64,000 nucleotides of DNA from Owenia fusiformis. Taxonomy: Eukaryota. Of the stretch, positions 1,391-63,769 are shown one piece after another. Numbering within the stretch: the first letter of the stretch is position 1; each line of letters starts with the position of its first letter. Made by a program: the position numbers and the translations under genes. The stretch is from contig CAIIXF020000001.1 in assembly GCA_903813345.2 (NCBI GenBank), positions 15,438,001 through 15,502,000 of the forward strand, written 5' to 3'. The notes below the pieces were generated by a model. That model saw nothing but the letters and a program-made list of their open reading frames with translations. It was not told where the DNA came from and ran no database searches.

Positions 1391-1689
1391 TACGTCACTA
1401 CCATAAGTATTTATTATAGGTCGTGTTGACCATTGTTGCTTGGTTTATAGCGAAAGCATTGCCTTTTGAACGTTGGTGACGCTGCGCCTTTTTAATAGAT
1501 CTCATATCTTGGAAGCGTATCGGTTCAAGAACTCTAGAAGATCGAGCAATGCGACAGAAAATCTTCAAGCTTCATTGAATTTTCGAGCAGAAGTTCGCTA
1601 CTCCCCCATCCGTTCATCTTTTCCGATCGCATAGTGTGGTTTTCATGTATCTTTAAAGCCAAGACTTAATGAAACTGAAAATGATTTAC

Positions 1690-1821
1690 CCAATTGATCT
1701 TCGCCATTGTAATCCTCTGTAGTCTTGAGCCCTGCTTCAACCGCTGCATCATAAACATACTTTACACATTCAACTTCATCCACTGTCGATACGTACAAAG
1801 GCCCCGAGGTACCATGGTATT
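1690..1821 (-). CDS. GMC copy A exon 4 ([11 protein letters not shown]...DYNGEDQL)
   Basis: HGxxGPL motif, AG/GT boundaries. Confidence 0.9.
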
Positions 1822-4800
1822 CTAGAATGTACATCAGGTGTAATAACAAAATATACATTTTTAGATACAGAATTGTTACAAAATATACCAATCAAATGAG
1901 GTTGGTCAATTTTGGGTATTTTCTGTATAACATTTACTAAATGGAGAAAATGGCGTTTCCATTTAAAATAGAAGTTACATATTATGTGTTTACAAATAGT
2001 TTATAGATAATAATTTTCTACTTTAAAATTACTAATCTTGGTAGATATGTTTCTCTTACTTGATTTGCTTAATTTTGGATCAAGCTGTGTTTCAGATTTC
2101 TTGAAATATGGAAGTACATCTTTGTAGCTCCACCCTGTGTTTCCCAGTTCTGCCCACATGTCATAGTCATATTTACTACCACGCGTGTATTGCATGCCAT
2201 TATGTGCACTGCAACCTCCAAGTAATTTGCCACGCGTCCATTTACTTTGCTTAAAAAACGTATAAGATGAGTATCATATGATTAAATACCAAATACTATA
2301 TTGAGATATAAGACGTTTTAGCTGTACACTGGCAAGACCAACATTGCTAGATGAGTATGTATGCCCAGGAGTATGCAATATTTTTTATTTCTGCACTGCC
2401 ATGGAAAATTTAGGCAAAAATTGGTCTTTTTGGGCCATTTTTGACCTTTTGCAAATTATTTTTTTCTTTCGTGACTTGAAATGTGATCCCAACCCCTTGT
2501 TGATCTTGTTAATGTAGCTTCTGGTTCCCCCGGTGATAAGGGTTATTTCTCGAAAATTAGTTGATCCATTGTTGATACTTTTAGTAAACAAGAAATTCAT
2601 TTAGGTCCGATATCCACTTGAATTAAAACACAAAATCATAAGTGTTTTACCGTTAATAACATTATTGACTTTAATTACCCTTCACATCGTCTTTGACATA
2701 CCTTTTTTCTTAAAATGATCAATTAAACTATCAATTTCAGCATTAAGAAGTATAAATTCAGTTCAAAGCTTCAAAAGGGGAAATCCAAGAGGAATGTTTA
2801 TCTAGGGGATTTCTTTGTAGAAAATAATAAAAAATAGATGTAAGTCTTGATAAAATATCCAAACTTAAATATATTTTGACACTGGTCCATGATCGTTGAA
2901 TCTTGCTATATTCTGCACTGATTGTTGCACCTTTAATGTTTTGGTATGGTCAACATTGGGCATTTAAAATGATGGGTTCATTCTTAAACACCTTTAAACA
3001 ATATTCTTCATTATATGGTGCGAAAGCACCATTTTATTCTTTTCCATGAGACTATTTTAAGCAAGGTCAAATATATCTTATTTTCTATCATACATCTTTA
3101 TTCTTTCACACTTTAACTGTTATTAAATGTTCTTTCCAATGGTATTTAGTATGTGTGTGTGCCTCTCCAAATCCATGCTGTGGATGGATGCACGACAACC
3201 TGTGTTTAATGATAAGAATCAGGCAAGATTATTTCAAGTATATTTTTATCATAAAGGAATCGTTATAATAGGGTAGATTTTCAAAAATACTTGTATGAAT
3301 TGTATATTATTTATTCACCGAGTTTTCCAAGCCTTTGCAACAATGTTTCTGTGGAACCGTTTTGTATTCCCAGTCCATGCTAGTTCGTTGAAGAAGCGTG
3401 AAGCCAAGCGGTGCCTTTGTGAGAGGGTTTGATGCTTCTCCAGCTTCTAGGAGTAACACTTTGGTGTTTGGGTCTTCTGACAGTCTACTTGCTATAACAG
3501 CACCTGCTGATCCTGCTCCGACTGTAAAAGGTTGAAATATTATTGTTGAAAAATTAACTCCTAGGCACACAAAAAATGGTTCAGAGAAATTTTAGTTCTT
3601 AGTGAATGCCAATGGCCCAAGATATTTGAAACATATTAAGAGCTTAGTTCCAACCTAGATATAGGCCAACAATATTCGTTTATTTGAAGGTTTACACCCC
3701 AGTCACATTTGTCGTACGGCGGCCGTGCATCGACCGCAGATCAATTAAATCAGTGAATTTCTGCGGCGAGTGTAGAAAATCTTACGTTCGCCTTGCGGTC
3801 TCCGTACGGCGTATCCAGTTTTTTACAGGCCGCAGGGTAGTCGTAGAAATTATAATTGGAGTTATAATATTTGTACATTTCTGAGGTCTCCGTAGAAATC
3901 AACAGGCCGTTGCAAGACCGCAGAAAGGTCCAACGGCGGCCACAAGTTATAACATAGTAGCCGAGACATAGTGCTACGGCCAAGCCCATTTGTGTCCAAA
4001 ATACCTAGATTCAATTTGACTTTAGATTCTTGTAGGGGACCCCAAGGCATGTAAAAAAAGTTTGTGAACCCTTGCAAAGCAGGCTCAAAAGTGCTGAGTC
4101 AGCAAATTTTATCATTTTCGAGTCGGAGTTTGACCATATGCTTGAAACTATTTAATATCTCATTTGAGGTTGTTGCAATTATAATGACACATTATTAATA
4201 TATCAATAAGGCATGTATGAAGAAGTCCTGAACGTTTGGGTCTTATCCAACAGAATTTGGTAGAGATATAAGATATTTTGTCCCTAAAAGTACACAATTT
4301 CTCTTCAAAACTTCTTAATCAGTCTACAGTAAATCCGTCATTTAAAAATCAGTAAGGGCCTATGGTGTATAAAACCTGATTAAAAACGTCACTGATGATG
4401 TTAGCAAATATTTCTTGCATAAGTTTCAATGAAAAGTGCTTGCATCTATTTTTCTGATTTTTCTCTTTACCTTCCCCTAAAAATTCAAGAAAGGGGGCGT
4501 GGCACCTTACACTTCAGTTGTTGAACTTATTGCTAGGGTACGTCAAATAGAAAATGTGTATCATTATAGCAAAATTTGTTATTCAAAATAAATCTAAACA
4601 CTATATGTGTCATCATAATATGCTAAACATGTTCATTATCTACCATTTTATATTTTTTACAGCTTATCATTGCCATACCCCATAAAACTGTTTAGGGTAT
4701 GTGTTGTCAGCAATTGGAAATACATGTATGTGTACTAATAACATTTTTCAAAATTGTATTTCAGGTGCCATTCTTTCCTAATGTTGTTCATGTAGTTATG

Positions 4801-10800: not shown

Positions 10801-12242
10801 GCTTGGCCGTAGCACTAACAACACAAGTCCCAAGTCTGTATTTTTACGCTCATTTCTTCATTTTTAAGAGTTAAGTCATCATATTTTGCATGCATATTCC
10901 TTGAAGAAATCCTAACATCTAATTTTATTGGTTTCGATTATAATTTATTTGTTAAAAATATAGAAACATTTGATTTGTATTGGTCCATAATCAGAATTAT
11001 CCATTTTGTGTAACAAATGGAACATTTTGACGTCATTAATAAAAAATTGAAGTTATAAATGATAGATTCAATATGGTGTCTCTAATCTTATTGACAATAA
11101 CTATCATCCAAGATATTTTTTGCCAGTCATCAGATCATGCATTGGAAGAGTACCCCAATGAGAAATGCATTCATTGATTGTGGCAAGCAGTGAATTGGCA
11201 AAACAGTGGTGGAGTCACGCCATTATTTTGCCGCATTTTGGTCCTGAATTTCCCCTTTAAGATCGTTTGTTACTACTGTGACGTCACAATATAGCATCTG
11301 ACGTCATAATACGGGTACCAAATTAACGCACACATTACAAGCTTTAAGATGATACCAAATATGTCATCATTCATTTGATTAAAATGGTTACTGGAATAAG
11401 CCCAAAGGGTATGTCACTCCCCTACCCCATCCATTTTTCAGGAAATTAAAACACGCAAAAAATCTCAAATAATGCAGGCATCTTCAGGGGTCCTTTTTGG
11501 CCCCGTTTTATTTCAAATATCATGTTTCTGCATACCATTTTTCTCGGATATGTCTCAATTACCCCAAAATAGTTACACTTCTGCTGAAAAAGGAAACATG
11601 TGGTCAATTTGGAATTATTACACCAAAAGTAGTGATTTTTTATATAAAGTTAAAATAATGCATTTGGCGCTGAAAATGGCAAATTTTGATTATAGACCAA
11701 TCAGAATCAAATGTTTCTCTATTTTCAACAAATTTAAGTTATAATCAAAACCAATAAAATTCTATGTCAGGATTTCTGCAAGGAATATGCATGCAAAATG
11801 TGGTGACTTAACTCTTAAAAGTGAAGAAATGAGAGTAAAAATACAGACTTGGGACTTGTGTTGTCTCGGCTACTATGTATGCATGCATAGACAAAATAGA
11901 TTTAGTGGTTGAAATGAGCGTTGAGTGTTGTATTTGATGATCTAAGAACCTACACATTTGTTTTTAAAATGACTGGAAATTCAAATATTTGGAAATTTTA
12001 AAATGATCAATTTTTTTCAAAAGTCATATATTTCGTAAATATGTGTCAAATGACTTTTCAAAGTAATATTTGAATGGTCTTCTCCATTTTTTTGCAAATC
12101 TACCCTTTTCCTTACCTACAATATAGTCATATTCCTTATCTAATACATCCTGTATTTTCGAATTAATGTCTTCAGCCCTTTCCTTTGTAAAATAGAGATA
12201 AATCGCAGCAAGAACTATGATATATGACAAACTCTTGAACAT
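1690..12242 (-). CDS. GMC oxidoreductase copy A, exons 1-4 (gene continues beyond the left edge)
   Basis: Exons 12116-12242, 3319-3521, 2060-2249, 1690-1821 have the same sizes and phases (127/203/190/132) as copies B and C. Sequence is more divergent. Confidence 0.9.
2060..2249 (-). CDS. GMC copy A exon 3 ([24 protein letters not shown]...)
   Basis: GMC signature region, AG/GTAAG boundaries. Confidence 0.92.
3319..3521 (-). CDS. GMC copy A exon 2 (VGAGSAG...KGLENS)
   Basis: GxGxxG motif, AG/GT boundaries. Confidence 0.92.
5251..5791. mobile_element. Foldback MITE with CACTGG termini and TAGTA direct flanks
   Basis: cactggtgatccactcgattacgct / agcgtaatcgagtggatcaccagtg; almost wholly palindromic; related fragment at 1-310. 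Confidence 0.85.
8286..10337 (-). mobile_element. 5'-truncated non-LTR retrotransposon (CR1/L2-group RT), ORF still open
   Basis: ORF 8455-10392 has [37 protein letters not shown] and a C-terminal CACG...H...CP. AATAAA plus poly(A) at 8285-8294. Sits in the right TIR of 3969-10817; the first ~19 codons of the listed ORF are host TIR. Confidence 0.92.
12116..12242 (-). CDS. GMC copy A exon 1 ([18 protein letters not shown]...EYDYIV)
   Basis: ATG at 12242, GTAAG donor; homologous to B/C exon 1. Confidence 0.88.
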
Positions 12243-14821: not shown

Positions 14822-16880
14822 TACACATGTCAATCTCACAAATTTTTAAATTGTATCAATTGAGATGACCATAGGCCTAGCTAGAAACATGGCAATTTGA
14901 AGTTTTTGGCAGGATTTTAAGATTCAGGCATAAGAAAAGTCAGCATACAGTGTAAATGAATTTAACCAATTTCTGTAATGAGTGGAATGCGAAAAAGATG
15001 AACCTTTTGACTTAAGGAGGGTACTACACTTAACTATAAAGGTCATCATTAAAATATATATAGGCCTTTCATCCAAAATACTGGAGAGTTGGTGAGTTAA
15101 CATAACCTTGGATGATGTTTCCCATGGTATATAACACTATTTATCTTTTAAGGTTTTTGTTCGCCTGTTATTCACCAAAAATGAAATATTTTTTTACAAT
15201 GTTAAATGTATGACCATGCTTTTTTAAATTTTTTTATGAGTTCAACAATTAGTTGAAAAAGGAGGTGAAAATTAGTTCAACAATTAGTTGAAAAAGAATG
15301 TTGGTTTGTATATTGAAAATTAGTTCAACAATTAGTTGAAAAAGATTGTTGGTTGGTGGTCCTTTGCCTCTTTGATATCACTTAGTCTGGTTAACTTAAT
15401 TATCATTATATACATACCTTGCTTGGAGATGATGAACGAGTCTCATAGATACACCGGTACCCGTGTTCATGATCAGAAAATATTCATAATTTATATTACA
15501 AACGTCTAAAATTGTTTGCGATAAGTTACCTACGTGCTCCTTAAAGGGTGACGCATATCGTTTAGCAAATCGAACGCTCGTTTCTGGTGTTGCTCACCGT
15601 TTGGTATAAAAGGCCCGATCCCGGAATAATACTCAAGGGTTCACAGGTTCGAGGTCGTTGTGTCAACACCTCTAACTGTTATATAGCATAAGTATATTAT
15701 AGATCGTCACACATTTATAAAAGGGTGATTTTTATTTTGACAAATCAATTCCACATTTATGGGTGAAGTTTCAGGATCTTCTATTTGTGTACAATAAGGA
15801 AAAATTGGCATCTAAATTTCCCCATAACGTAATAGCACACAGCTTGACATATGAAATATCCTACAAATGAAACAAAGCAAGACAAACCGGTTTCTAATAC
15901 AAGGATTTATATTGGCTGTTGTACATGTATTCTTTGAACGCAATCACTCTTTGGATAACGTTTTCAAAATCATTATAAAAGGATTTCTTTATCTCAAAGA
16001 CAATTTCAATAAACTGGATTTTACAGAACTCCCCTTATTTCTTAAAAATGGACTGATCCAGTTGATTCGCCTGGAGCCGCCATATTGTTTTTATACGGGA
16101 TGCTAATCGGAACCCTTTAACATGCAGTAGAGAAACCGAATTACCACTTCATTCACCAACAGTTGGCATACCTTAAACTTGAGTTTCAAAACTGAGCCTT
16201 TTACGATTCCCCATGTACACGACTTTTAACTTGGACTTGGAAATTATAATCTGGAAGACCATTTTGCTATTCATTTTGTTATGCATTTTAAATGTACATT
16301 TTACTCGTACATCTCAAAAACAAATACGATGATATTCATTCTATCGGAAAAGTTCGAAAACAATTATGTGTCCATATTAGTAAATGATGTGATGTTTGTA
16401 TGTATATTCATTTATTTCTGTCTCACACGTAAAGTACATCCAGCCCTTGCCGACTTACGAGAGACTCATCAATCGATTTTTAAAGCTAAAGCAGTGTCAT
16501 TCATTTTATTGCATCGTTATCAATTTCAGTCATACTACTGTACGTTAGCTTTAAAATTGGTTCTTGATGTTTATTCATATAATACCAATAAAATGATTCA
16601 TAAAAGACTCACTTTAACTCATTTTTCAACTTACATGAATGTACACTAGTGTGATCCACAAGGGGCCCTTTTGGTCTATTAATTACATCATACAATAAAT
16701 TCAGATATATCTGAACTGTAACGATATATCTGAATTGTAAATACTTTTAAAAATGAATGAGAAATAAGTCTAAAGTTACGATTGTTAAATCAAATCTGCA
16801 GCCTTGATCGTATAAAAAATATCTAGTGCATTGATTTTTGCTGGAAGCATGGTGTTTAAAGTTAATTATGCGTCCATATA

Positions 16881-18909
16881 CAGGCCCGTAAGACACTTTT
16901 CTCCAAGGGGGGTGCGGTTTTAACTAAAGAGAAAATAAAATTGTCAATTTTTTACCGCGTAAATCAAATTGCGTAAGTCAAGGGGGGGGGGTCGGTTACT
17001 CCCTATATTTTGTAGTATTTTATTGTTTTCGTATTGTTTTTAGACTAAATATTGTATGAGCAATTTGGAGAAATACTGGAATAGGGGGAGGGTGTACTAG
17101 AAGGGCATAAATGCCCGAGAACTTTTACCAGTTCAAGATCACATTCAGTGATTTCTGGATCCTTTCAAGGTGTTTTAATTGAAACAGAATCTATTTATAA
17201 GAAATTCAGATTTTTTCAATCATTTTCTTCTTAGGGGGGCAGCAAGGAAAATTTTACAAATTCAAGATGCTGTTTGGTTAATTCTGAGCACTTTTAATGT
17301 GTTTGAGTAAATGAATGCTTTTGTTTTTGGGGTTGGCTGCCAGAAATGTTTATGTTTTTATGATTTCATTATGTCACTTGGTGACTTCTAGGCACTTTAA
17401 ATTTAAAATTAAAACAAATGCAACCTCCAAACTTGTGAGGAGTGACCCACTCCCCTTAGAAAATTTTACACTTTTGAGATGCCATTTGGTGCTTTCTGGG
17501 CACTTTTAAAGTGAATGAGTCGTCGATAAAAAAAATTTCAAATTCTTTTTGGGGATGTCAAAGAGAATGAAAGGGTGAAGTGGGGTGGAGTGTCAGAGGG
17601 GGAGCATTAAGGGGTTGTTCCCAAGAAACAGTGACCATATCAAAGTGCCATTTGATGATGTCTGGGCACTTTAAAAATGTCTGAGACAATACATGAAATT
17701 CAGAATTTTTTCAATTGTTTTGTGGGGGATGTGAGGGGTGGTCAACTCTCCTAGAAAATTTTACAATTTTAAGATGATACTTGGTGCTTCTGGGCACTTT
17801 TAAAGTGTATGAGTCAATCGAAAAAAAATTGAAAAACAATTACATTTTTTCAATTTTTAGGGGTGTCAAAGGGGGATGCCAGAGGGGGGATGCCAGAGGG
17901 GGAGGTGAGATTAGGGTGCCAGAGGGCCAGCAAATGTTTTTCCCCAATATCTGTCCCCAGAAACATTGGCCATATCAAGGTGCTATTTGATGAAGTCTGG
18001 GCACTTTAAAAGTGTCTGAGACAATGCATGAAATAAATTCAGAATTTTTTGTGGGGGATGTGAGGGGTGGCCTACTTCCCTGGAAAATTTTACAATTTTA
18101 AGATGCTATTTGGTGCTTTCTGAACACTTTCGAAGTGTATGACTCAATAAAAAATTTGAAAAAATCACAATATTTTGGGGGTTGTCAAAGGGGGAGGGGG
18201 TGCCAGAGGGGGAGGTAGGGTGGGGATGCAAGAGGGCGAGTAAGTGTTAGTCTCCCAGAATCATTGACTATATCAAGGTGCTATTTGATGATGTCTGGGC
18301 ACTTTACATGTGTCTGAGATGATGTATAAAATAAATTCAGAACTTTTCAATTTTGCTTTGGGTGTGAGGGGTGGCCGACTCCCCCTAGAAAGTTTTACAA
18401 TTTTAAAACGCTATTTAGTGCTCTCTGGGCACTTTCAAAGTGTATGAGTCAATTAAAAATTTGAGAAAATCACAATTTTTTGGAGGGGTGTCCAGGGGGC
18501 GAGGGCCGAGGGTGCCAGAGGGGGAGGTGGGTTGGGGTGGGGATCCCGAAGGGGAGCATGTGTTTGTCCCCCACCAGAAACATTGACTATATCAAGGAGC
18601 TATGTTATGAAGTCTGGGCACTTGGGCACTTTAAAAGTGTCTGAGACAATACATCAAATAAATTCAGAACTTTTCCATTGTATTGAGGGGGTGTGAGGGG
18701 TGACCCACTCCCTCTAGAAAATTTTACAATTTTAAGATGCTATTTGATGCTTTCTGGGCACTCTAAAAGTGTATGAGATGATGAAAAATAATTACAAAAA
18801 AAATATTTTTCAAAAATATTTTTTTTTAATTTTTAAATTTTTTTGGGGGGTATCAAAGGGGGGTGCGGTCGCACCCATCGCACCCCCCCCCCCCCATCTG
18901 ACGGGCCTG
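16881..18909. mobile_element. hAT-like non-autonomous element with internal ~300-330 bp tandem repeats, downstream of the copy B stop
   Basis: caggcccgtaaga / tctgacgggcctg termini; ATATA on both sides; absent at the paralogous site near 39320; about five G-rich repeat units at 17450-18800. Confidence 0.8.
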
Positions 18910-18982: not shown

Positions 18983-19109
18983 TTAAGATTGTCTAATCAA
19001 ATCTGCAGCCTTCTCTCCTATCATAATAGATGGCGCATTGGTGTTGCCTGATACGACATGAGGCATAATGGATGCATCTGCCACTCTCAGATTCTCAATC
19101 CCTTTCACT
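18983..19109 (-). CDS. GMC copy B exon 11 (not in ORF track)
   Basis: [41 protein letters not shown]. Confidence 0.88.
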
Positions 19110-19245
19110 CTGCAAAACATGACAATACTTTGAAAGATCTCGGGCAAAGGCATTACTCGTTTAACTAGACATGTAAAAATTGAACAAGTTCAATTTAAGA
19201 CTCCTAAGATTTCAGACTTTTTTAAGCTGGGTAATACCTGAGACT

Positions 19246-19989
19246 TATCCCGTTCCAGGACTATGGTCCTGTACGGAGCCCATACATTTGCCTGTACGAT
19301 TACAACTTGGGAGAATTATCTACGCCCCTTCCACTTAAGAAACCTACCTCAATGCATTCTAGAACTCAAAATGTAACTTCTAATATATTGGAACCGCCGA
19401 TTGTCTGGGTTAGTTGGCAGAACGAGGTCTTTTTGTTTCTTATGGCTCTTTTGGTCGAAGTTCGATTAAGATGGCGGTTATAACGGAATTTCCCGAACTC
19501 TTCCGTAATAGCACGAACTTGGTTTTTCGTTACGTCACTTCCGTGTAAAATGGATTTGTTTCGGGTAAGAGGGAATTTCGAAAATTTCGGACAATATTTT
19601 CAATATTTACTGCCATGTCGACATCCTATGCTCTTAACTGTATACCGAATGGTTAAACAATGTTTCTTACCGGAAACAAATTCATTTTACATGGAAGTGA
19701 AGTAACGAAAAACCAAGTTCGTGCTATTACGGAAGAGTTCGGGAAATTCCGTTATAACCGCCATCTTAATCGAACTTCGACCAAAAGAGCCATAAGAAAC
19801 AAAAAGACCTCGTTCTGCCAACAAACCCAGACAATCGGCGGTTCCAATATATTAGAAGTAACATTTTGAGTTCTAGAATGCATTGAGGTAGGTTTCTTAA
19901 GTGGAAGGGGCGTAGATAATTCTCCCAAGTTGTAATCGTACAGGCAAATGTATGGGCTCCGTACAGGACTATAGTCCGGGAACAGGATA
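19246..19989. mobile_element. Foldback element with ~325-bp near-perfect TIRs, TSD acctgagact (10 bp; an 8-bp reading is also possible)
   Basis: 19246-19570 is the reverse complement of ~19664-19989; direct repeat at 19236-19245 and 19990-19999. Confidence 0.88.
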
Positions 19990-21196
19990 ACCTGAGACTA
20001 ACATAAATGGGATTGGAAGCCTTCCATTGACCATGTATTAAATTTTCAAAATCCCCACGCCAAACGAGATTTCTCGAGATTTGGATTCTAGACGATCACC
20101 ATTGGCGAATTCTTTTCGCCGGAGCTGTGCTTTTCTACAATTATGTAATTATACTCACTGTGTGGTATGTATTTAATCTATTAAATGGTATTATTGGGTG
20201 CATAATTATTGGAAAATAGTAGAATCTGCATCAGAAACGTCCTTACAATACCATAATAGGCGATTGAAAAATTGAGAAAAAATTTCACAAGGAAGACTGT
20301 CGAAGAATCCGTGGATTTTTGACGATTTATGTTAAAAATGACATAATTTATGTGTTTATAAAGTTATATATAGGTTATACATCAACAAGTAGGGCTTTCA
20401 TTCTCACTTTTTCTCACATTTTTGCAAAACATTTTCGTCCATTTTTCAGTCAAAAAAGATTTTTCTCAAAAGTTTTTTCTTGCAGATAAATTATCCAGAA
20501 AAGCCACTGATATGGTCCATATATCATTGGAAAGACCAAACTTAGTAGGTCACCTCAGACTTTTCATTTGGATTATAGATTGGTTCTTTTAATTGACATA
20601 GCTGATTGAAATCATTGTATTGGCAAAACTTCCCCTAACTCCTTGATTGCCTTGTGACTGATTATTTTTCAAAAGGTTCATTATCCAAATATCCTTCAGA
20701 TATGGTTAATACGTCACTGGAAAGAGCAGAATTAGTAGAATTCCAAAGATTATTCATTTAACTGATAGGTTTTCCTCTTTTAATTGTCAAAGTCAACCAA
20801 TCATGGTATTCAGGTTTTGGACTTACTTTACCCTCTTTTCACGATAAATCGCCTATGATTTTTCAAAAGTTTACTTTTCGAAATAAATTCACCCAGACTT
20901 CTCCCATATATGGTTCATATATCACTGGAAAGAGCAGAATTAATAGAATTCCAAAGATTATTCACTGAAATGATAGCTTTCCTTTTTTTATTGTCATAGT
21001 CCACTGAAATCATGATATTGGCCTAACTTTCCCCTCCTTTCGCGATAAATTGCCTATGATTTTTCAAAAGTTTACTTTTCCAAAATATTGATCCAGACAT
21101 CCCCCATACAGTATATGGTTCATATATCACTGGAAAGAGCAGAATTAGTAGAATTCCAAAAATTATTCACTGAAATGATAGCTTTCCTTTTTTAAT

Positions 21197-21576
21197 ATCC
21201 CAGATGCGAGTAGAAATAATCTTGATTAACGTCATTAATAATTCATTAGGAAATGTGGTTTTGAAAAGAGTTTATCAACTTTGAAAATTTAATTTTCTTT
21301 GAAAATGTGACTTCTAGGTCGGGGAGATTCCCCATAGAGCCCATGTTGTAAAACCACACAAAGTGAAATATCTTTTCTTGTGTTGGGCAGATAATATTTT
21401 CTTTTACTGGACATATTTTAATTTGTGACTATCAGATACATAAAGGTAATATGAAAAGTGAACCATTAAAACTGATGCATATTCAAGTAAGGAAATTTTG
21501 TAATACCCTGCCATGTTAATTCCCCCGAATCAGCCACCTGGTGGCGAAACTGGTAACTGCCAACTCGCATCTGAGT
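21197..21576. mobile_element. Small TIR element nested in a repeat unit
   Basis: cagatgcgagt / actcgcatctg termini with AAT flanks; neighbouring units show the empty site. Confidence 0.7.
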
Positions 21577-22239
21577 AATTGTCATAGTCCACTAAAATCA
21601 TGGTATTGGCCTTATTTTCCCCTCGTTTCGCGATAAATCACCTATGATTTTTCAAAAGTTTACTTTTCCAATGAAATTCACCCGTACATCTACAAAATAT
21701 GGTTCATATATCACTGGAAAGAGCAGAATTAGTAGAATTCCAAAAATTATTCATTGAACTGATAGCTTTCCTTTTTTAATTGTCATAATTGTTATGAAGG
21801 TCTCAGGTAATACAGAATAAGATGAGTCATCCAAAATAAGCTGAGTCAACCAGAATATAGACATTTAGACAATTCTTAGGTAGGGTTTCTTCCACCCTTA
21901 CTTCAGAAGTCACACATTAAATTTGGAGAACATTTTGTTTTTATCCACTTTCCGGACACAATATCTCAAAAATGGGCCAAAATACTTTGGAACGGCAAAA
22001 TCCTAAGTCTAATCCTAAGTCTCGGTTTGGAGAACAGTCCCCTGGGCTAATACTTTTTAATGAAAAATATAGAAATATCAACAGATCAACCAAATTAGAT
22101 TATGAATATTCAAAAGAGGACATGTAAATTTACAAGATGTAAAAATATCAAAGTCCGAAGCAGGGGTTTCGCTCAATTAGACCGATCCAATAAAATACAA
22201 GTGGAGTAGTGACAGAATTATAAATCGGGATTAATGTAC

Positions 22240-22465
22240 CTTAACTGTGGGTCTACGACTGAGTTTTTATCAGTAGCTGGTCCCATTCTGCATGTTGATG
22301 ATGGATGGAATGTAGTCCACATGTTTGCTCTTATGAAACAATCCCAGTAAGCATCGGTGCCAAATCGGTGAGCTTTACATAAAGGGTGGTGATTTCTTTT
22401 CAGTTCAAATCCTCCCCTTTTGAATACATTTGTTTTTGCAAGTTTTTCTGTCCACACCTTTATCC
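22240..22465 (-). CDS. GMC copy B exon 10
   Basis: [10 protein letters not shown]...VVDPQLR, 226 nt. Confidence 0.88.
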
Positions 22466-22622
22466 CTATATATGAAACATGATTTCAGAAATATAGCAAT
22501 GATTATTTATTTAGTTAGGTTTCAAATCAGCTAGGCTCACTACATATTGTATGAAAATGTGTTGACCTATTTTTAATTTTTTAGATTAATAATATGATGA
22601 TGAACATGTATTAATTATTAAC

Positions 22623-22806
22623 CTGCCGTCAAATGTTTCACATCAACTGAATTTTTGAGGTAGTTTGGCTCAATCAATGGATGATCAAATGGATCCGTGC
22701 TCTGAAGTCTAATTGTACCATTGGTAGCTGGATGGAGCAATGTGACAAGGACACTGATTCCAGTTTTTCCGTCCAGTTCCTCATCTGGGTATATTGTATT
22801 CCACAC
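22623..22806 (-). CDS. GMC copy B exon 9
   Basis: [28 protein letters not shown], 184 nt. Confidence 0.88.
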
Positions 22807-22809
22807 CTG

Positions 22810-24480
22810 AAATTGTATTGGAACAGTTCATTCCATAACTGAAGATGCATTGACATATACCATTATACAACTGAAAGTACATTGAAATAGACCATTGTAT
22901 AACTGAATGTGCATTGAAGTAGACTATTGCATAACTGAAAGCGGACTAAAATAGTCCATTACATAACTTGAAAGTGCATTGAAATAGACCATTGCATAAC
23001 TGAAAGTGCATTGAAGTAGACCATTGCATAACTGAAAGTACACTTAAATAGTCCATTGCATATCTGAAAGATCATTGAAATAGGCCATTGCATAACTGAA
23101 AGTGCATTGAAGTAGACTATTGCATAACTAAAAGTACACTAAAATAGTCCATTACATAACTGAAGGTGCATTTGAATAGACCATTGCATAACTGAAAGTG
23201 CATTAAAGTAGACTATTGCATAACTGAAAGTATACTAAAATAGTCCATTACATAACTTGAAAGTGCTTTGAAATAGACCATTGCATAACTGAAAGTGCAG
23301 TGAAGTAGACCATTGCATAACTGAAAGTATACTAAAATAGTCCATTACATAACTGAATGTGCATTGAAATAGGCCATTTTATAACTGAAAGTGCATTGAA
23401 ATAGACCATTGCATAGCTTAAAGTGCATTGAAGTAGAATATTGCATAACTTAAAGTACACTAAAATAGCCCATTACATAACTGAATGTGCATTGAAATAG
23501 ACCATGCATAACTGAAAGTGAATTGAAGTAAACTATTGCATAACTGAAAGCGCACTAAAATAGTTCATTACATAACTGAAAGTGCATTGAAATAGATCAT
23601 TGCATAACTGAAAGTGCATTGAAGTAGACAATTACATGACCTACCGTACACTAATCTGGAAGTGCACTGAAATAGGCCATTGCATAACTGAAAGTGCATT
23701 GAAGTAGACCATTGCATAACTGAAGTATACCATTGCATAACTGAAAGTTATAGACCATTGCATGACTGAAACTAGAATAGTCCATTACATAACTGAAAGT
23801 GCATTGGAAAAGACCATTGTATAACTGAGGGTGCATTGAAGTAGACCATTGCATCACTGAAGGTACAGTAAAATAGTCCATTACATAACTGAAAGTGCTT
23901 TAAAATAGACCATTACATAACTAAAGTACATTGAAGTAGACTATTGCATAACTGAAAGTACAATAAAAGTGCATTAAAATAGACCATACATAACTTGAAA
24001 GTGTGAAAGTGCACTGAAATAGACCATTGCATAACTGAAAGTGCCTTGCCGTAGACTATTCCATAACTGAAAGCGCACTAAAAGTCCATTACATAACTGA
24101 AAGTGCATTGAAATAGACCATTGCATAACTGAAAGTGCATTGAAGTAGACCATTGCATAACTGAAAGTACACTAAAATAGTCCATTACATATCTAAAAGT
24201 GCATCAGAATAAACCATTACATAACTTAAAATGTATTAAAGTAGAAGATTGCATAATTGAAAGCGCACTAAAAGAGTCCATTCCATAACTGAGAGTGCAT
24301 TAAGACAAACCATTACATAACTGGAAGCCCCTTGATATACTACATTACATAGTTGAAAGTGCATTGAAACCATTTATAATATAACGAAATGTGCATTGAA
24401 ATATTGCATTCCATGACTGAAAGTGCTTTTGAACATTGCATTTCATAGCTGGTATTAATATTGCACTGAAATAGTGGACT
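22810..24480. repeat. 32-bp minisatellite (ataactgaaagtgcattgaaatagaccattgc) in B intron 8
   Basis: ~50 units, often in a 3-unit higher-order pattern; continues at 26733-26880. Confidence 0.95.
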
Positions 24481-24483
24481 ATA

Positions 24484-26730
24484 CAGGGTGACCAAAAAAA
24501 TGCAACCCTCCATTTCTTCAATATTTTTCTTGGAGGTTAATTGGAGGTTAAATGGAGATTAATTGCTCTGAAATTTGGCACACACGGACTTCATTCAATG
24601 TGGGATCCTCTGGCAAAGTTATAATAATCATAGTCTTATATTGATAGAGTTATGGTCGTTCCAAAATATGCTCCAAATGTCGTCCATTTCCAACGTAAGG
24701 TTTTCGGATGAATCACATTCCCTTCTTTCTGAACATGTAAACTCAGGAAATAATGTGTTCTGGGATGACAAATTCCAGATGAAGTGCTTCAAAGGCCCCT
24801 TCATTCTGTTAAATGCACAGCTTGGGCTGCCAATTTCCAAACATGAAATCATCAGCCACTTTTGGTTTGAGGTTGATAATGGCAACACTGTTACTGTTAA
24901 CACACAGCGCAACATTGACGTTCCCAGGAAGTTCTAGGCAGTTCTAGAGTGACATAGAGGCTTCAATAGACAAGAACAGTGGTTATTGAAGGATGGAGCT
25001 ACTCCTCACACTTCTAATGATAGCATAGCCTGTCTCACTAGTCATTTCTATGAGAAGATTATCTCCACCGTGCCCATGTCAAGCTGCGCGCCTAAGTAGG
25101 CGCGCAGTTTGTTTCGATCACAAACTGCGTGCCTAACAACATTGCATCATTTAAGTTGGAGTCTGTATTTTGAAACGTAATTTAAGGAAATTTATCCTGC
25201 ATTGTTTTCTTGTTCAATGCGTTCATGCTGTGGCGAAAATACAAATCTTGCAAATACTAGCAAAAACTATGTGCAAATGAATCTAAGTTTTAAAACATAA
25301 GCAGATTAATGGCATTTTCGTCACTGATTTAACGGGAATTTATGCGTAATTCGATCTAGCACGTTAAACATAAATGACAAATACTTTAGACTCGTTTTAT
25401 ATTTAATTCCTTACGCATTTATCATGTATAATTCAAAATATTTCGAGATAAAATAGATAATCAGGAGATTAAAAAGAAGTAAACCACAAACTGCGCGCCT
25501 ATTTTAGCCAGAAATTATAAACTGTGCGCATACACTATTAAAACTACATATTATCATTGACATTTTTACAGAGGCACGTAAAGGTGTTTTTCATATAGCT
25601 TTGGAAATTTTGCTTTATTGCAGATTTTATGAGATTTTCATATTGAAAGTCAAAATGTATAATAGAAGTGACAATTAAGTTGGGAACGAAAGAAAGTATT
25701 TTATTTTTAGATCACCATTTGGTGGATGGACTCTCATAGTGTTTCAATTATAGGGTTCTACTATTAGACACATATGTGCCTTACATAATGGCGCTTACGT
25801 TTTCTAATAATACAAAACAAGCTTGGATAGGCAAGTTTGGAAATATTAGGCACGCAGTTTGGGAAATACATGTGAATATAGGCGCGCAGTTTGACAAGAA
25901 AAATGTTTAAATCACGTTTATGGCGTATTATCGTTTTGAACACAAACTATGCTGCTTTAATCAGATGGAGTGATCCTATATATTCGAGCATACACAGACA
26001 CAATGGCTGAATAAACGGCATATGACGATAAAAATACAAAGATATAACTTTACACTGAAAATTTTGAGCACAGAAGTTACTTAAGACCCTTATATTGAGA
26101 TAACCAGGTTAACATCGGGGAAAACATTGAGTACTAAGAGTAAATTAAGTTCATCTTCACAGAATGGTACTACTTATAGAACGAGACTAACCTTGTATTT
26201 TTCGTATTTTGGCTCTTTTTGGGAGTCGTGTCCTCCCCGTCTTCATTTTGAAATATGCGCGCAGTTTGTCAGAGTTTCAAACTGCGTGCTTAGTAGGCAC
26301 GCTGCTTGACATGGGCATCGTGATCTCTCCTAGGACGGATAACCCATGGTCATCCCACAGTCTTGATCTCAAAGCCCCTGACTTCTATAAATGGGGTTAT
26401 GTAAAGGATAATGTGTATGAAAATAACCGCAATTGTAGAACTTCTACAAGCAATGGCTGCAAAATTTGAGCCATACCCATGGGGAAGAATGCACCCGTGT
26501 TATGAACAGTTTTCCTTGAACATTGCAAGTTTGTTTTCAGCGAAATTGACGACATCTGGAGCATATTTTGAAACAACTATAGCTCTATCAATATAAAACT
26601 ATGATTATTAAAACTCTGCCAGAGGATCCCACATTGAATGAAGTCCCTGTGTGCCAAATCTTAGAGCAATTTACCTCCATTTAAGAAAAATATAGAAGAA
26701 ATGGAGGGTTGCACTTTTTGGGTCACCCTG
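24484..26730 (+). mobile_element. Degenerate Tc1/mariner-superfamily transposon
   Basis: cagggtgaccaaaaaa / tttttgggtcaccctg TIRs (~180 bp), TA TSD. Transposase relics FSDESH, KDGATPHT, WSSHSLDLKAPDFYKWGYVKDNVY. Only the right part survives in C (42201-42483). Confidence 0.88.
25066..26322. mobile_element. Transib-like non-autonomous element (CAC termini, 5-bp TSD ATCTC) inside the mariner
   Basis: caccgtgcccatgtcaagc / gcttgacatgggcatcgtg; ATCTC at 25061-25065 and 26323-26327; repeated aaactgcgcgccta motif. Confidence 0.8.
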
Positions 26731-27014
26731 TACATAACTGAAAGTGCATTGAAACAGTCTGTTACATAAATGTAACCTCAAAACCATGGAAATATTGCAA
26801 TCCATACCTGAAAGTACATTGACATATTGCATTTCATACTCGACATTTCATTGAAACAATTCATTCCATAACTGAAAATACATCCATATTATATTTGAAG
26901 GCACCTTGAAATATATTTGAAGGCACCTTGAAATTTAAATTGATACAAAAGCTCCGTCGACTACTAGGCCTATATAAGGCGTACGATATTCTGCAAGCTA
27001 TGTTTCAACAGTAC

Positions 27015-27178
27015 CTCGTCAGTATATCCCATATTGCCTTTTATATAATCTGTTCCTTTATCACTTCCCCATATTACTGATAATACATGAAACTGGATGT
27101 ATGGGAATTTGTGATCATCTGGCTGGTAAGGAGATCTCATGAAGTACATCATATTTGGCAGTGGATTCTTCCATACAC
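27015..27178 (-). CDS. GMC copy B exon 8
   Basis: VWKNPLPN...PYIQFH..., 164 nt. Confidence 0.85.
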
Positions 27179-27315
27179 CTGTGAACGACAGATATAAAAT
27201 GGTCCACTCTTTATTTGTAGTTCCACATAAAATGCCTAAGAACAAGATCGTTTTTTCAAAAACCATGTCCATTAAGAACTGGTTAATACACATGGTTATT
27301 ATTTGAGACACCAAC

Positions 27316-27466
27316 CTGTTCCAAAGAGGTTATACTTCAAGGTCTCAAGTAAAGATAACGCTCGGTTTTCTGTTATGGCATCAACTTTGGTAAAAAATGT
27401 CAGCATGTCTGATGTAGGATGTTCCTCCATATTTTCCCCAACTGGTAGGTCTGCCACTACTGGTAT
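27316..27466 (-). CDS. GMC copy B exon 7 (not in ORF track)
   Basis: [17 protein letters not shown]..., 151 nt, AG/GT. Confidence 0.88.
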
Positions 27467-27479
27467 CTAAGAAAGGGAT

Positions 27480-27740
27480 GAATTGTTTCATTTCCCATTG
27501 GTTTACATTAGGGAATGATGATTTTCAAAAATTCATCATATTTATCATCAATTTTCGACCTACTTTAATTGAGGAAATTGGAAATTGGGAGGCATTGGAA
27601 ATGAAGTCAAGTTACATTTTCATCAATATCATAAGTATTTTCCTCGCAGGTCATGTAAATCTAAATCCAAACATAAAGAGGATTTAATACGTAGTTCAAT
27701 GAGGGAGTTAAGGTTGCCAAACTTTTTGAGGGAAGTGTAC
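27480..27740. mobile_element. Fragment of the cactcccctccataagtttggcaacc MITE family (paralogue at ~49740-49996)
   Basis: Matches the right arm of 59289-60305. Confidence 0.65.
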
Positions 27741-27790
27741 ACGAAAGAGCTCTGGATGAGTTTGTACGTATATGATTCTACAAAACTCAC

Positions 27791-27958
27791 TCCTATCTCT
27801 TTAAGGTGTTTCTTAGGTCCTATTCCAGACAGTAGGAGAATGTGAGCTGATCCAACAGCACCTCCTGATATTATAACTTCCTTTCTTGCTTTCACATTTT
27901 TCTTGACCAATCCTCTTACATAAGCTACACCAACTGCTTTCTTGCCTTCCAGGAGGAC
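27791..27958 (-). CDS. GMC copy B exon 6
   Basis: [25 protein letters not shown], 168 nt. Confidence 0.88.
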
Positions 27959-28486
27959 CTGTTTCAAATACAGTTGCAATAGAAAAACAATGTCGATTTG
28001 ATTAAACATTTAACACGTCTAACTATCGACAACGTACAGTGACAAAATATACTGGTGTACATGTTAGTTGTTTATAGCAAAAATTGTGATGTTGATGTAA
28101 AAAAATGTATCTATGGAATATGATGAAGTATCTCATGTTAAATTTTATGTTCATGCTCTTGGCAAGACTTTTAACTTTCAGAGTACGATTTTTTCTAGGT
28201 CATTCCCCCCATGTACATGTGAATGTAACCAACATTTTCCATCCATTATGTGGTTGGGATACCTAGAAAAAATTCGAGCACTGCTCGAAAATCAATTAAC
28301 GTAATATACGCTTCGAATAATATTATTCGAAAATTTTAGGCCGCCATTTTTGTTTGTCGATTTTGACCAATTAGAGACGTATGTCTCAATATAGGTCTAC
28401 ATTATAAGCGTAGGTCATATTTGAACTCTAGAGTAATACCCCTGAACGCGAACCTTTAATTTTATTTCAACTAGCTCAAATATGAC

Positions 28487-28611
28487 TTTTGTGACGTGAG
28501 CTTGTGTTGCTACGTGTAGATTTTTTCTGTCCATATTTGGCTCTAAGAAGGCAGTTGCAGTACTAGACCTCTCTCCATTGGCATCTACAGTTACCTGGGC
28601 TGCGTTCCAGC
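28487..28611 (-). CDS. GMC copy B exon 5
   Basis: [23 protein letters not shown]..., 125 nt. Confidence 0.88.
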
Positions 28612-28675
28612 CTAGGGAAGATACAAAATAACACCGAGTTGATATACAGCATTCCATAATACATAGTACGATGTA

Positions 28676-29664
28676 CAGGGCGTATCAAAAAAACGCAACA
28701 AGTAGTTATCTTGTAAAATTCCAAAACTAGTGATGACTACATGAATTTCATTTGATGTACCATAAAGCCACGTCTCTCCTCTTTGCAATGATATGTCGTT
28801 CATTCACATGTGGTAATGTTTGGGTGAGAAATCCTTCCATTTGCACAGTGGATCAAAATCAACTCTGGGCCAAGTTTTAGATATTGCAAAAATCAGTGCA
28901 AGGGCTAAGTGCCAATGGAAGTTCCCTTGACTTGAATTGTTGTGACTTTTTCTTTTGGAGCTATCTCGGGAGCATTTGTGCTCACAATTCCTCCACCAGA
29001 TATTGCAAAACCTCAAGAAAGAATTGCCCATGGGCTGCTTTTCTCTGCTTTAACCCACAGATGACTCAGAACCATGCATGACGTGGACAGATGAGCGCAT
29101 CTTTATATGCAAGGAAGTGGTGGCAATTTGGAGGGGTATAGGATGTATTCTTGCAAGAGTATGAGTATGAACACTTTACTGTCTATCCCACACCTGTCAC
29201 AGCTTCTTCCAATAGCCCCTATGCCCCTTGTACTGACTTTCGCAATGTTTAAAACTTGGGTCCGAGCTGAATTTTGCCCCACTTTGCAAAATTAATGATT
29301 ATTCGGCCAGAGATGACTCTCTGTGAATGAATGATATTCTATTGAAAAGAAGAGTAATTTGGCTTTTTGGTACATTGAATGAAAAGGATGCAGTCAGCAT
29401 TGGTTTTATGTTTTCTTCCAATTTTGCATCGGGCTCCATACACTGAGTTTTGCGAAGTTTATAACTTGGTCAAAAGCTAATTTTGGCCGACTTGTCAAAT
29501 GGAATGATTATTCGCCGAACCATGACCAAATATCAATGAATGATATATCATTGTAAAGAGGAGACACATGGCTTTATGGTGCATTGAATGAAATCAATGC
29601 TGTTATCACTGGTTTTGTGCTTTTCCGAGATAAAAATCTGTTGCGTTTTTTTTGATACGCACTG
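28676..29664. mobile_element. Tc1/mariner-type non-autonomous element, B-specific
   Basis: cagggcgtatcaaaaaaacgcaaca TIRs, TA TSD, empty site in C near 50975; transposase relic SLDLNCCDFFFWSYL. Confidence 0.85.
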
Positions 29665-30966
29665 TATATGCCGCCAACGATTTAACGTTTTAATGGTTGT
29701 AAATGCAATTGTATTTGGAATGGTGCACAACTGTTTAACTATAAATGGTCAACAATTAAGAAGATGTTTGTTCTACAAAAAAAGTATATTTGATGACCTG
29801 ATGGTCATATAAACCTTGTAAATTCTATCAAATATTGAAAAATTTCCATGTGAAGCCTTCATAACAAAAATCCCCGTTAAAATCAATTGGGCATTTTTTA
29901 TCTATGAGAGTATGAGTATTTTTATATTTTGAGTTCTAAAAAATATTTTTCTCAGATGCGCATCAGGTAATTATAATGTATTAAAAAGTAGAGACACTAT
30001 TTTAGTTTTTCACCTTTTAAAATGAATAATACCGGAGTCTGAACTAAATGTGCCGTTTTGACTTTATTCTACACTCAAAATGGGGACTTTGTGTCCCGTT
30101 TCATCGAAATTAGAGAGGACAGATTTTATTAAAATAATTGGAAAGCTTTTTTACTTGTCTGCGCATGTTCCATACTTTACTGTATTGGTACCAAATGATA
30201 GGGTAAACCATACTTCTTCAGGTTATAATTCGCAAGAAAACGTAATAAGCGATTGACGAGTCCCGCATTAAAAGTTATCAGAACACATTCTCTACAAATT
30301 ATAACTTTCAATCATGATGAATTGTCATTTCGGAAATGAAGATGCACATGTCATTTTGATGTAATGTTTATCTATTGATATTAATAATGATTATATCCTG
30401 TAGGATTTGCATATAAATCCATCAAGAAAAGGGACATTAGTACAAAGCTTTCAATTTCAAAGTTTAGAATTTTTCTTGGTTTCCATGTTTATTCAATTTT
30501 AAATCGATGTTTTGATTGAAATTGCTTGGTTTGTTTCGAAATACGTTTTCATCGATACATTTCTTAGATTGAATGTAGGTAATAAAAATGTAATGTCATT
30601 TTCATAATTTTATGTACATGCTTCAATGAATTTCGAAAGAATGACGACGAATGTTCGTCAAATTGCGAGAATATTCTTCATAACGTCACATTTCATTGTT
30701 TCCTGTGAAACAGGAGTGTGCACCATTAGCGTACTTATAGTAATTATCAGTTAACTTATTTTTGAAGCCCATATTGTAATTTAGCCCACCCTGTGAATAT
30801 TACTATGAACAAGTAAGTCAAGTGGTATATCTGATCCCCAATATTGCTCGGTGATAGTGTAGATATGCAAATTGCAATAGTATCCCCAAAGGCTTTTCAC
30901 TTTCAGGACTACTTTTCATGTATCTTAAAGTTAAAACTGAAAAATACCCATTTGATCTTTGCCATT

Positions 30967-33862
30967 TAGTCTGGCAGAAATATAGGGTATTTTGACATTC
31001 AATCGTTTTCTTCGGATTACAATGTTTTTTTAACTTATCAACATGAATATAGGATTGGGACCTCAAAACCACCAGATGCCGGTGCGGCACCCTTGGGCAA
31101 CTCTCTACAGAGCATTTCTTATACCCCCCTGATAAAATATACAGGGGGTACTATAAGACACCCTCATATCTCAGATACTGATAAATATATTAACTTGAGA
31201 TTTTCAGGAATTAGTTTTAGTATGATGCTTGACATGTATGACAAAAATCAAGAAAAAATCTTAATCCGTTGCTATAGCAACAGTAACAGAACACTATTTG
31301 TTACCGTAGAGATGCATCATTTTGCTGATTTTCAACATTTCTTCAAATAGTTGATTCTTAAACTAGTATATAGTATTACACTAGTATATAGGACACTGCA
31401 TATTTTATATTTAGTATATACATGTATATCAAATGAAATCTAATGCATTCATACAGTAGTGAGGTTGGCATATAGTCGGTCTAGACGGCTTTGGCATTTA
31501 GAACATGCATCATAATAAAATCTATTGAATTATACAATAGAGAGGTTGGCATAGTCTAGATTTTGGCATAATGTCTAAATTTTATAAGCATTGGCTTTCC
31601 TCATCTGAGCAATCAGACTACTGGGGGCCCTGTATAGCTTCTGGGGGCCACTGGGGACCATCGTATAGCTTTCAAAGGCACTGTAAATATTTGATTTAAC
31701 ATTGAATTCAATTGGATATTTCTTTAACAGTGAAATTTAATGGCCATGAAACATTTCAGATTGACAACATCGTGAATTTTTTGTCAGTGAAAATTTGGGC
31801 TTACTTCTGGGGGCTACTAAGGGCCCTCGTATGGCTTCTGGGGGCCACTAGGGGCGCCTGTATAGCTTCTGGGGGCTCCAGTTTAGCTTCTTGGGGACAC
31901 TAGGGGGCCACCATATAGTTTTTGGGAGCCACCATATGGCTTCTGGGGGCCCCTGTATAGTTTCTTGGGGCCATTAGGGGCCACCGTACAGCTTCTGGGG
32001 GCTACCATATAGTTTCTGGGGGCCACTGGATGCCATCCTATAGCTTCTGGTGGCTCCTGGGGGCCACCGTATAGCTTCTGGGTGCCATCATATAGCTTCT
32101 GGGGCCTACCATATAGCTTCTTGGGGCCACTAGGGGCCCCTATATAGCTTTTGGGGGCCACTTTAAAGCTTCTTGGAGCCACTGGGAGCCACCGTATAGC
32201 TTCTGGGTGCCATCATATAGCTTCTGGGGCCTACCATATAGCTTTTTGGGGCCACTAGGGGCCCCTATATAGCTTTTGGGGGCCACTTTAAAGCTTCTTG
32301 GAGCCACTGGGGACCACCACATAGCTTCTGGGGGCTACTAGGGGCCTCTGGATATGCTTCTTGGGGCCACCATATAGCTTTCCGGGGCCACCATATAGCT
32401 TTAAGGGGGCACTAGGGGCCACTGTATAGATTCTGGGGGCTACTGGGGGCCCCTGTATAGCTTCTGGAAGTCACCATATAGCTTCTAGGGGCCATTTGGA
32501 GCACCTGTATAGCTTCCCGGGGCTACCATATAGCTTCTGGGGGCTACTAGGGGTCCCTGTATAGCTTCTGGGGGCTCCTGTTTAGCTTCTTGGGGACACT
32601 GGGGGGCCACCATATAGTTTTGGGGAACCACCGTATAGCTTCTGGGGGCCCCTGTATAGTTTCTTGAGGCCATTGGGGGCCACCGTACAGCTTCTGAGGC
32701 TACCATATAGCTTCTGGGGGCCACTGGATGCCATCCTATAGCTTCTGGCGGCTACTTGGGGCCACCGTATAGCTTCTGGGTGCCATCATATAGTTTCTGG
32801 GGCCTACCATATAGCTTCTCGGGGCTACTAGGGGCCCCTGTATAGCTTTTGGGGGCCACTGTGAGGCTTCTTGGAGCCACTGGGGACCACCATATAGCTT
32901 CTGAGGGCTACTAGGGGCCGCTGGACATGCTTCTGGGGCCCACCATATAGCTTTCCGGGGCCTCCGTATAGCTTTAAGGGGGCACTAAGGGCCACTGTAT
33001 AGATTCTGGGGGCCCCTGTATAGCTTCTGGAAGTCACCATATAGCTTCTAGGGGCCATTTGTAGCCCCTGTATAGCTTCTGGAGGCTACTAATGGTCCCT
33101 GTATAGCTTCTTGGGGCCATCTTATAGCATCTTGGGGCCACTAGGGGCCCCTGTATAGCTTCTGGGGCCACTGGGGTCCATGGTATAGCTCCTTGGGGCC
33201 ACTGGGGGCATTTTTTATTTAAACCTTGAAATTTTTTTTCAAATTCATGTGACTATTTATCTCTTAAGCAGCACTTTTTTACCTAGGGAGCATAACCTTT
33301 TCAAGAAGTGTTATTTTGGACCACCTTTTTAAAGAAAGTGAAATGTAAAAACCTGATTATTAAGTGATGTTACCATAGCAACTGAAATGTTAGATATATT
33401 ACATAAACCATATGATGAATTATTTCATCTTTACTTCTAATCATGTATATAACAGATACATATATACTTCAGATGCTTTAAGAATCAAGAATATGAAGAA
33501 AATTATGAAAATCAGCAGAATAATGCATTTCTACGGTAACAAATATTGTCTATTTCTGTTGCTATAGCAACGGATTAAGATTTTTTCTTGATTTTTGTCA
33601 CATGTGTCAAGCATCATACTAAAACCAATTCCTGAAAATTTCAAGTTAATATATTTATTAGTGTCTGAGATATGAGGGTGTCTTATAGTACCCCCTGTAT
33701 ATTTTATCAGGGGGGTATAAGAAATGCTCTGTAGAGAGTTGCCCAAGGGTGCCGCTCCGGCATCTAATGGTTTTGAGGTCCCAACCCTATATTGATGCTG
33801 ATAAGTTAAAAAAACATTGTAATCCGAAGAAAACAATTAGCTTTGAAGTTTCTGCCAGACTA
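30967..33862. mobile_element. Academ-like TIR element (TAG...CTA, 3-bp TSD ATT) inserted in exon 4 of copy B
   Basis: tagtctggcagaaa / tttctgccagacta; ~400-bp TIRs; ATT at 30964-30966 and 33863-33865; empty site gccattgtaat in A and C. Confidence 0.88.
31620..33210. repeat. GC-rich minisatellite (tatagcttctgggggccacca / ctaggggcccctg modules) inside the Academ-like element
   Basis: Dozens of 21-32 bp modules. Confidence 0.9.
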
Positions 33863-33978
33863 ATTGTAATCCTCTGTAGTCTTGAATCCTGCTTCAACCG
33901 CTGCATCATAAACATACTTTATACATTCAACTTCATCCACAGTTGATACTTGTAGAGGCCCTGAGGTACCATGGTATT
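33863..33978 (-). CDS. GMC copy B exon 4, 5' part (remainder at 30948-30966)
   Basis: Matches copy C 57680-57811 up to the insertion point. Confidence 0.85.
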
Positions 33979-63768: not shown

Positions 63769-63769
63769 T

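Follow-up and report, generated by a model that had tools for sequence, protein, structure and literature searches.

Why and how enzymes acquire a covalently bound flavin is an old question. Choline oxidase of Arthrobacter globiformis (2jbv, 3ljp, 4mjw) and pyranose dehydrogenase (PDH) of Agaricus meleagris (4h7u), both of which are GMC enzymes, carry 8alpha-(N3)-histidyl-FAD according to Table 2 of PMC3541233. The histidine lies in a loop that reads GGCSxHN in choline oxidase and GGCSTHNGM in PDH. For fungi, PMC6509819 reports that this position is His in 93% of covalent PDH and, in AAO clades, hydrophobic in 87-92%, and that the residue found there tracks covalency in the AAO-PDH branch. Patulin synthase (8bxl), also a fungal GMC enzyme, has another unusual state of the loop, with Arg in place of the His (GGSSARN).

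Other members of the GMC superfamily have the equivalent histidine and a flavin that is not covalently bound. His127 of PsG3Ox is about 6.5 Å from the FAD C8M and the FAD is non-covalent, as it still was after the fungal motif had been grafted in (PMC10646112). The His is likewise conserved in ScPOx, which binds FAD non-covalently (PMC9659204; PMC11673046), and MPOx and MtCarA are reported to hold non-covalent FAD as well (PMC11673046). The case of PsG3Ox means that the His alone is no guarantee of a covalent bond. PsG3Ox has a His/Asn pair, but both it and ScPOx belong to the pyranose oxidase branch.

Among animals, honeybee glucose oxidase (AmGOX) and AmGLXr-2 carry a His at this place in the loop (GGTTLHHGM and GGTSSHNGM, respectively; Iida et al. 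2007, PMC1891103 supplement S8), although they have Thr rather than Cys three residues before it (-3) and belong to the insect GLD/GOX branch. We found no statement on the FAD binding mode of these two proteins in the open-access literature, and within the same literature we found neither an animal GMC enzyme described as covalently flavinylated nor a paper treating Owenia fusiformis and GMC oxidoreductases together. None of the 57 PDB matches is recognisably an animal GMC enzyme by its molecule name.

A tandem array of GMC genes in Owenia fusiformis

The window analysed here is a stretch of 64,000 nucleotides of O. fusiformis DNA. Six-frame translation places three peptides with the GGCSAHN motif on its minus strand, starting at 2231, 34392 and 58220, and each lies within a 190-bp exon with ag...gt borders (2249-2060, 34410-34221 and 58238-58049), so that the three predicted positions are borne out. 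The motif is not a chance match, since it stands in register within a full GMC protein. With 30 kb of neighbouring DNA added on each side, the locus comprises four tandem GMC copies, one of them beyond the window end. Copies 1 and 3 and the copy past the window end are open frames of 598 amino acids with GT-AG introns.

Copy 1 (39521-62135, minus strand) has 11 exons and 10 introns, and its 598-residue product is identical to P0001, a protein labelled Owenia fusiformis in the source databases whose numbering is followed here (Cys123, His126, His535, Asn579). Its exons 1-6 are at 62135-62009, 59117-58915, 58238-58049, 57811-57680, 50913-50789 and 50215-50048, and exons 7-11 are at 49723-49573, 49439-49276, 40341-40158, 39994-39769 and 39647-39521. 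The His126 codon occupies 58191-58193, while exon 10 (39769-39994) carries the catalytic His535 (FHPSST) and exon 11 (39521-39647) the catalytic Asn579 (GNTNAP).

Copy 3, also on the minus strand, begins with an exon containing the start codon and a hydrophobic N-terminal helix (12116-12242). Exon 2 (3319-3521) encodes the GAGSAG dinucleotide-binding motif, exon 3 (2060-2249; 190 bp) bears GGCSAHN, and the His126 codon (CAT, 2202-2204) specifies the predicted 8alpha-attachment residue for FAD, which aligns with His99 of choline oxidase and His103 of PDH. Exon 4 is at 1690-1821, and the remaining exons (5-11) fall outside the window, extending to 4.7 kb before its first position; the whole gene is open. 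FHPSST and GNTNAP each occur twice in the window. The original prediction had given these as the C-terminal motifs of the subfamily, which is right for copy 1, but copy 3, at the coordinates it gave, reads YHPTST instead of FHPSST. Just upstream of its intact exon 10, at about 2.87-2.98 kb ahead of window position 1, copy 3 also has a small partial repeat of that exon, which covers its first part and carries a one-base insertion.

Copy 2 (18983-36966, minus strand) also has 11 exons and is broken in exon 4. Exons 1-3 are at 36966-36840, 35247-35045 and 34410-34221, exon 4 is split into 33978-33863 and 30966-30948, and exons 5-11 are at 28611-28487, 27958-27791, 27466-27316, 27178-27015, 22806-22623, 22465-22240 and 19109-18983. 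The His codon is present at 34363-34365. An insertion of 2896 bp introduces an in-frame stop after Asn212, and the annotated protein of this copy, P0004, omits exon 4. All three copies thus have the motif, as had been claimed, but the one at 34340-34410 belongs to a broken gene. The Arg that usually precedes GK has been lost from copies 1 and 2, which read WATGK.

Among the three intact array copies dN/dS is 0.27-0.36, and dS among array copies is 0.06-0.23. The 3' flanks of the copies are conserved (16272-16880, 38733-39324 and 63767-64000), and the presence of such a flank on each copy shows tandem duplication of whole units.

The product of copy 1 contains the domains PF00732 and PF05199 (precomputed assignments), with GAGSAG at residues 44-49. 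Its AlphaFold model has a pLDDT of 96.3 and is best matched by choline oxidase in VIA-align (Z 55.8, rmsd 1.7, 510 aligned residues), followed by an enzyme with Z 54.1. When Foldseek matches are ordered by E-value, two bacterial alcohol oxidases come first and choline oxidase is 13th, with TM-scores of about 0.8 to solved GMC enzymes. In a whole-protein alignment with 3ljp, His126 falls on His99 of choline oxidase with no gap in the loop, and His535 and Asn579 fall on His466 and Asn510. The catalytic pair is therefore His/Asn as in choline oxidase, as was predicted, and it is present in 12 of 12 Owenia proteins. The loop profile is also gapless against residues 115-142 of PDH (4h7u), where the His falls on SEQRES 128; this is His103 after the 25-residue offset of the signal peptide, the structural-match range beginning at mature residue 1. 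The proposed correspondence with both attachment residues thus stands. PROSITE pattern PS00623, which has [LIVM] before [NH] (PMC12198266), does not match the Owenia loop, where His replaces [LIVM] and Cys occupies a [GST] position; choline oxidase and PDH deviate from it likewise.

The Owenia proteins share with choline oxidase the GMC fold, the GGCSxHN loop, the His/Asn pair and the Cys at -3, but they are only about 33% identical to it, have Thr333 for Glu312, have Tyr or Gly at +2 instead of Ser101, and are encoded by intron-rich genes with an N-terminal hydrophobic helix and a sequon. The covalent bond is shown in choline oxidase and inferred in Owenia. PDH has the same gapless loop, extended to HNGM in Owenia copy 3 as well, and the derivation of the His from a hydrophobic ancestral state would parallel the AAO-to-PDH change. 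PDH differs in its His/His pair (His512/His556), its identity of 31% and the fact that it barely reacts with O2. The nearest relatives outside Owenia are lophotrochozoan proteins (molluscs, nemertean) named glucose dehydrogenase [FAD, quinone]-like by automatic annotation, which are 43-49% identical, have the same His/Asn C-terminal motifs and mostly have Leu, Phe, Ile or Tyr in place of the His. All six Owenia proteins examined have a hydrophobic stretch that starts at residue 5 as well as an NGT sequon, which suggests that the enzyme is secreted or faces a lumen.

Distribution and origin of the histidine

In the Owenia genome, His is found in 11 of 18 exon-3 matches, spread over five contigs, and the other seven have Ile, Thr or Leu; these counts are lower bounds, and the 11 are counted by exon 3 rather than as whole genes. 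Both CAT and CAC serve as His codons among the Owenia copies. The 11 His copies have only 37 of 63 exon-3 columns invariant, but they are close to each other, so the fact that the His has been kept is a weak sign of selection on this residue.

In the 120 best-ranking homologues, His occurs in 7 of 12 Owenia proteins (two of the 12 are without the motif region) and in 4 of 108 proteins from elsewhere, 101 of which have Leu, Phe, Ile or Tyr. Close homologues as a whole accept L, F, I, Y, S, A and M at this position. In a set of 150 distant representatives, His was found in 4 of 148 motifs read, nine proteins having no pattern match; the bearers include the mites Medioppia (GGCSAHN, partial protein) and Brevipalpus and the sawfly Neodiprion. 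With the sawfly motif region as the query, only 10 proteins, all of diprionid type, were recovered. By eye, the sawfly proteins look like bee GOX/GLXr immediately ahead of the motif. Four ENA proteins that carry the His (P0146, P0148, P0149 and P0166; GGCSMHNA) group together inside a set of bivalve-type GMCs, with the Leu-bearing P0132 within or beside their group. In the insect alignment of PMC1891103 (supplement S8, read by eye), His appears in 2 of 74 GMCs, AmGOX and AmGLXr-2, and the four glucose dehydrogenases have Leu or Met.

The list of animal GMCs with the His is incomplete, and from the sequences collected the His state is rare but recurrent. As the original prediction presumed, the motif is not common in metazoan GMCs (4 of 108 homologues; 2 of 74 insect proteins), most of which presumably bind FAD non-covalently. 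The idea that the His is special to the Owenia subfamily fails, since several other animal lineages have it too, honeybee glucose oxidase among them.

A FastTree phylogeny was built from 315 of 374 proteins, 46 having been dropped for length or motif count and 13 as near-duplicates. The seven Owenia His proteins fall in an Owenia-only clade of ten (support 1.0), and the tree requires seven changes of the His state. An IQ-TREE phylogeny of 41 selected rows, computed after the motif columns had been taken out, confirms the clade (100/99) and places the Thr-bearing P0101 as sister to the rest (100/99), while two Ile paralogues fall among the His proteins with weak support. "Owenia-only" is bounded by sampling, as no other named annelid is among the matches. 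A single gain of the His with later loss in Owenia is possible on these trees. The gain lies inside the Owenia-only clade and is independent of the microbial-type His proteins in the tree, as had been proposed. A single origin in animals was rejected when the ten His-bearing animal-type rows were placed together (p-AU 2e-41, LG+G4).

The subfamily is a recent expansion, in which paralogues with Thr, Ile and His stand at 58-68% identity and two His proteins, P0001 and P0097, are only about 68% identical. The paralogues have ATT (Ile) or ACT (Thr) at the His position, each two base changes from His.

The residue at -3 is a candidate partner of the His. Cys is found there in 18 of 21 proteins with His versus 11 of 218 without it. 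In a scan of 597 columns, which followed the noticing of the Cys, this column ranks first, with Cys in six of seven His lineages (binomial p 1.8e-7). Homologue matches biased towards GGCSA were excluded from both counts. Choline oxidase and PDH, both outside the scanned set, have Cys at -3, and the two Ile-bearing Owenia paralogues do not. A paired test that takes kinship into account had six pairs, with 4.2 changing the same way and 0.1 the opposite way (median p 0.125), and is underpowered. His without Cys is seen in P0336, P0370, P0371, P0372 and P0373, the last two of which were dropped from the tree, and in the two honeybee proteins. The pairing of Cys and His is thus suggestive. Pro332, which follows the conserved His331, came second in the scan (five of six His lineages) and was rejected as a marker of the His: the paired test gave a median p of 0.625, and Pro332 is present in choline oxidase and also in the non-His proteins P0101, P0374, 9avh and 8b7s.

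Proposed flavin attachment and alternative explanations

Given the register of the loop and the analogy with choline oxidase and PDH, it is fairly probable that the Owenia GGCSAHN proteins bind FAD covalently at His126. The bond, like secretion and the substrate class, is something that we infer. After the split from the Thr-bearing paralogue, a residue packing against the flavin 8-methyl (Ile or Leu) would have been replaced by His126, together with Cys123. The FAD would most likely attach itself as 8alpha-N3-histidyl-FAD, as in choline oxidase and PDH. During turnover, His535 would deprotonate a primary alcohol or a sugar hydroxyl with assistance from Asn579, and a hydride would pass to flavin N5. 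If PDH is a guide, such a tether would raise the redox potential and keep the cofactor from being lost outside the cell.

Alternatively, and with distinctly lower probability, His126 might form no bond, and together with Cys123 it could reshape packing and hydrogen bonding near the dimethylbenzene ring around a non-covalent FAD, as in bacterial glycoside 3-oxidases. PsG3Ox and ScPOx provide precedents within the superfamily for a His with non-covalent FAD, with MPOx and MtCarA as further non-covalent enzymes, and the range of residues accepted in close homologues suggests that the position is not tightly constrained. These counter-examples, however, come from the pyranose oxidase branch and have a different local motif (AAHW), whereas both aligned His-bearing solved enzymes of the branch with the gapless loop are covalent, and the recurring Cys-x-x-His-Asn mirrors these same two enzymes.

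It is improbable that the His is a near-neutral change that reached fixation a single time and was multiplied by recent tandem duplication, with no functional effect and several copies decaying. The youth of the copies as judged from dS, the break in one of the four array copies, the absence of the motif region from the annotated paralogues P0095 and P0098, and the Ile paralogues among the His copies, in which the His may have been lost again, are all compatible with such a history. So is the lack of RNA coverage of copy 3: in three raw RNA runs, of which 6-12% each was searched over window positions 1600-3600, about one read fell on exon 3, and it had three paralogue-like differences. One of these runs, X1, covers introns and looks like DNA, the other reads fell on an intronic repeat, and as the check concerned copy 3 only, with tissue and stage unspecified, it is not evidence of silence. 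Against near-neutrality, the His is common to paralogues only about 68% identical on five contigs, would have needed two base changes from the Ile or Thr codons, and has arisen alongside the same Cys in lineages unrelated to one another.

The reading of these genes as animal choline oxidases, inherited or transferred from the bacterial enzyme, that make glycine betaine is scarcely credible and was rejected in spite of the best structural match, the loop and the His/Asn pair, given the alignment of Glu312 to Thr333, an identity of only about 33% versus 43-49% to most mollusc and arthropod GMC matches, the 10 introns, an Owenia-only clade apart from bacterial-type rows, and scores below the cut-offs of choline dehydrogenase profiles from a prokaryote-built library (betA, 395 versus 732 bits; PRK02106, 461 versus 605).

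The DHPE of choline oxidase aligns to EHPT in copy 1, and all 12 Owenia proteins have Thr, Ser or Ala at this place. Glu312 is the residue that binds the trimethylammonium group of choline, and its replacement by Thr333 means that the substrate is probably not choline. Whether electrons would pass to O2 or to a quinone-type acceptor is about evenly balanced. The original prediction had linked covalent FAD to unusual oxidase chemistry, a link that is unsupported and breaks down in PDH: this enzyme has covalent FAD yet very poor O2 reactivity, and its H103A variant shows 414% of the wild-type O2 reactivity together with a lowered redox potential, roughly a fourfold gain on loss of the bond (PMC4950071). 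According to PMC3541233, neither flavinylation nor any single sequence feature is sufficient for oxygen reactivity. The one hint in the other direction among animals is that bee glucose oxidase has the His and glucose dehydrogenases are without it. A role of the Owenia enzymes in mucus or tube secretions is conjecture.

The Owenia case is probably a real, convergent version of a mechanism known from microbes and is not unique to the worm; it extends that mechanism and reveals no new one. More tentatively, and at somewhat less than even chances, animals may have evolved self-attached 8alpha-histidyl-FAD repeatedly, mostly through Cys-x-x-His-Asn. The lineages concerned would be Owenia, the clade nested among bivalve proteins, the two mites, and the sawfly and bee GLD/GOX branch. 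The change may accompany a shift from dehydrogenase to secreted oxidase, at which bee glucose oxidase beside insect glucose dehydrogenase hints. If gain was indeed repeated, the Owenia paralogues would form a natural series for gain and loss of covalent flavinylation, and closely related paralogues that differ in having the His would, should the bond prove real, allow a direct test of its needs and effects. Honeybee glucose oxidase, which has already been purified, offers a cheap first check. Alcohol oxidoreductases with covalent FAD are useful as biocatalysts because the cofactor is not lost.

Insertions and repeats in the locus

The 2896-bp insertion in exon 4 of copy 2 (30967-33862, strand not assigned) has terminal inverted repeats starting TAGTCTGGCAG and is flanked on both sides by a duplicated AAT. 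It contains a long subterminal inverted repeat and internal tandem repeats, and its longest stop-free stretch is 126 codons. By these features it resembles a non-autonomous DNA transposon. Its TAG...CTA ends and 3-bp duplication are reminiscent of Academ elements.

Two fragments of LINE-type retrotransposons, identified by eye, lie in introns of copy 1 (43900-47110 and 55480-57100, both minus strand) and contain endonuclease-like and reverse-transcriptase-like frames with breaks. Long inverted repeats (42622-43467 versus 49147-48311, 94%) bracket a region with a LINE fragment (42620-49150). Minisatellite arrays are found at 17250-18800, 22800-24450, 31800-33200 and 40330-42200; those at 22800-24450 and 40330-42200 occupy matching intron positions in copies 2 and 1 and are thus older than the duplication that separated these copies. 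An intronic repeat at 2700-2940 is very abundant in DNA and is found in RNA reads from other loci.
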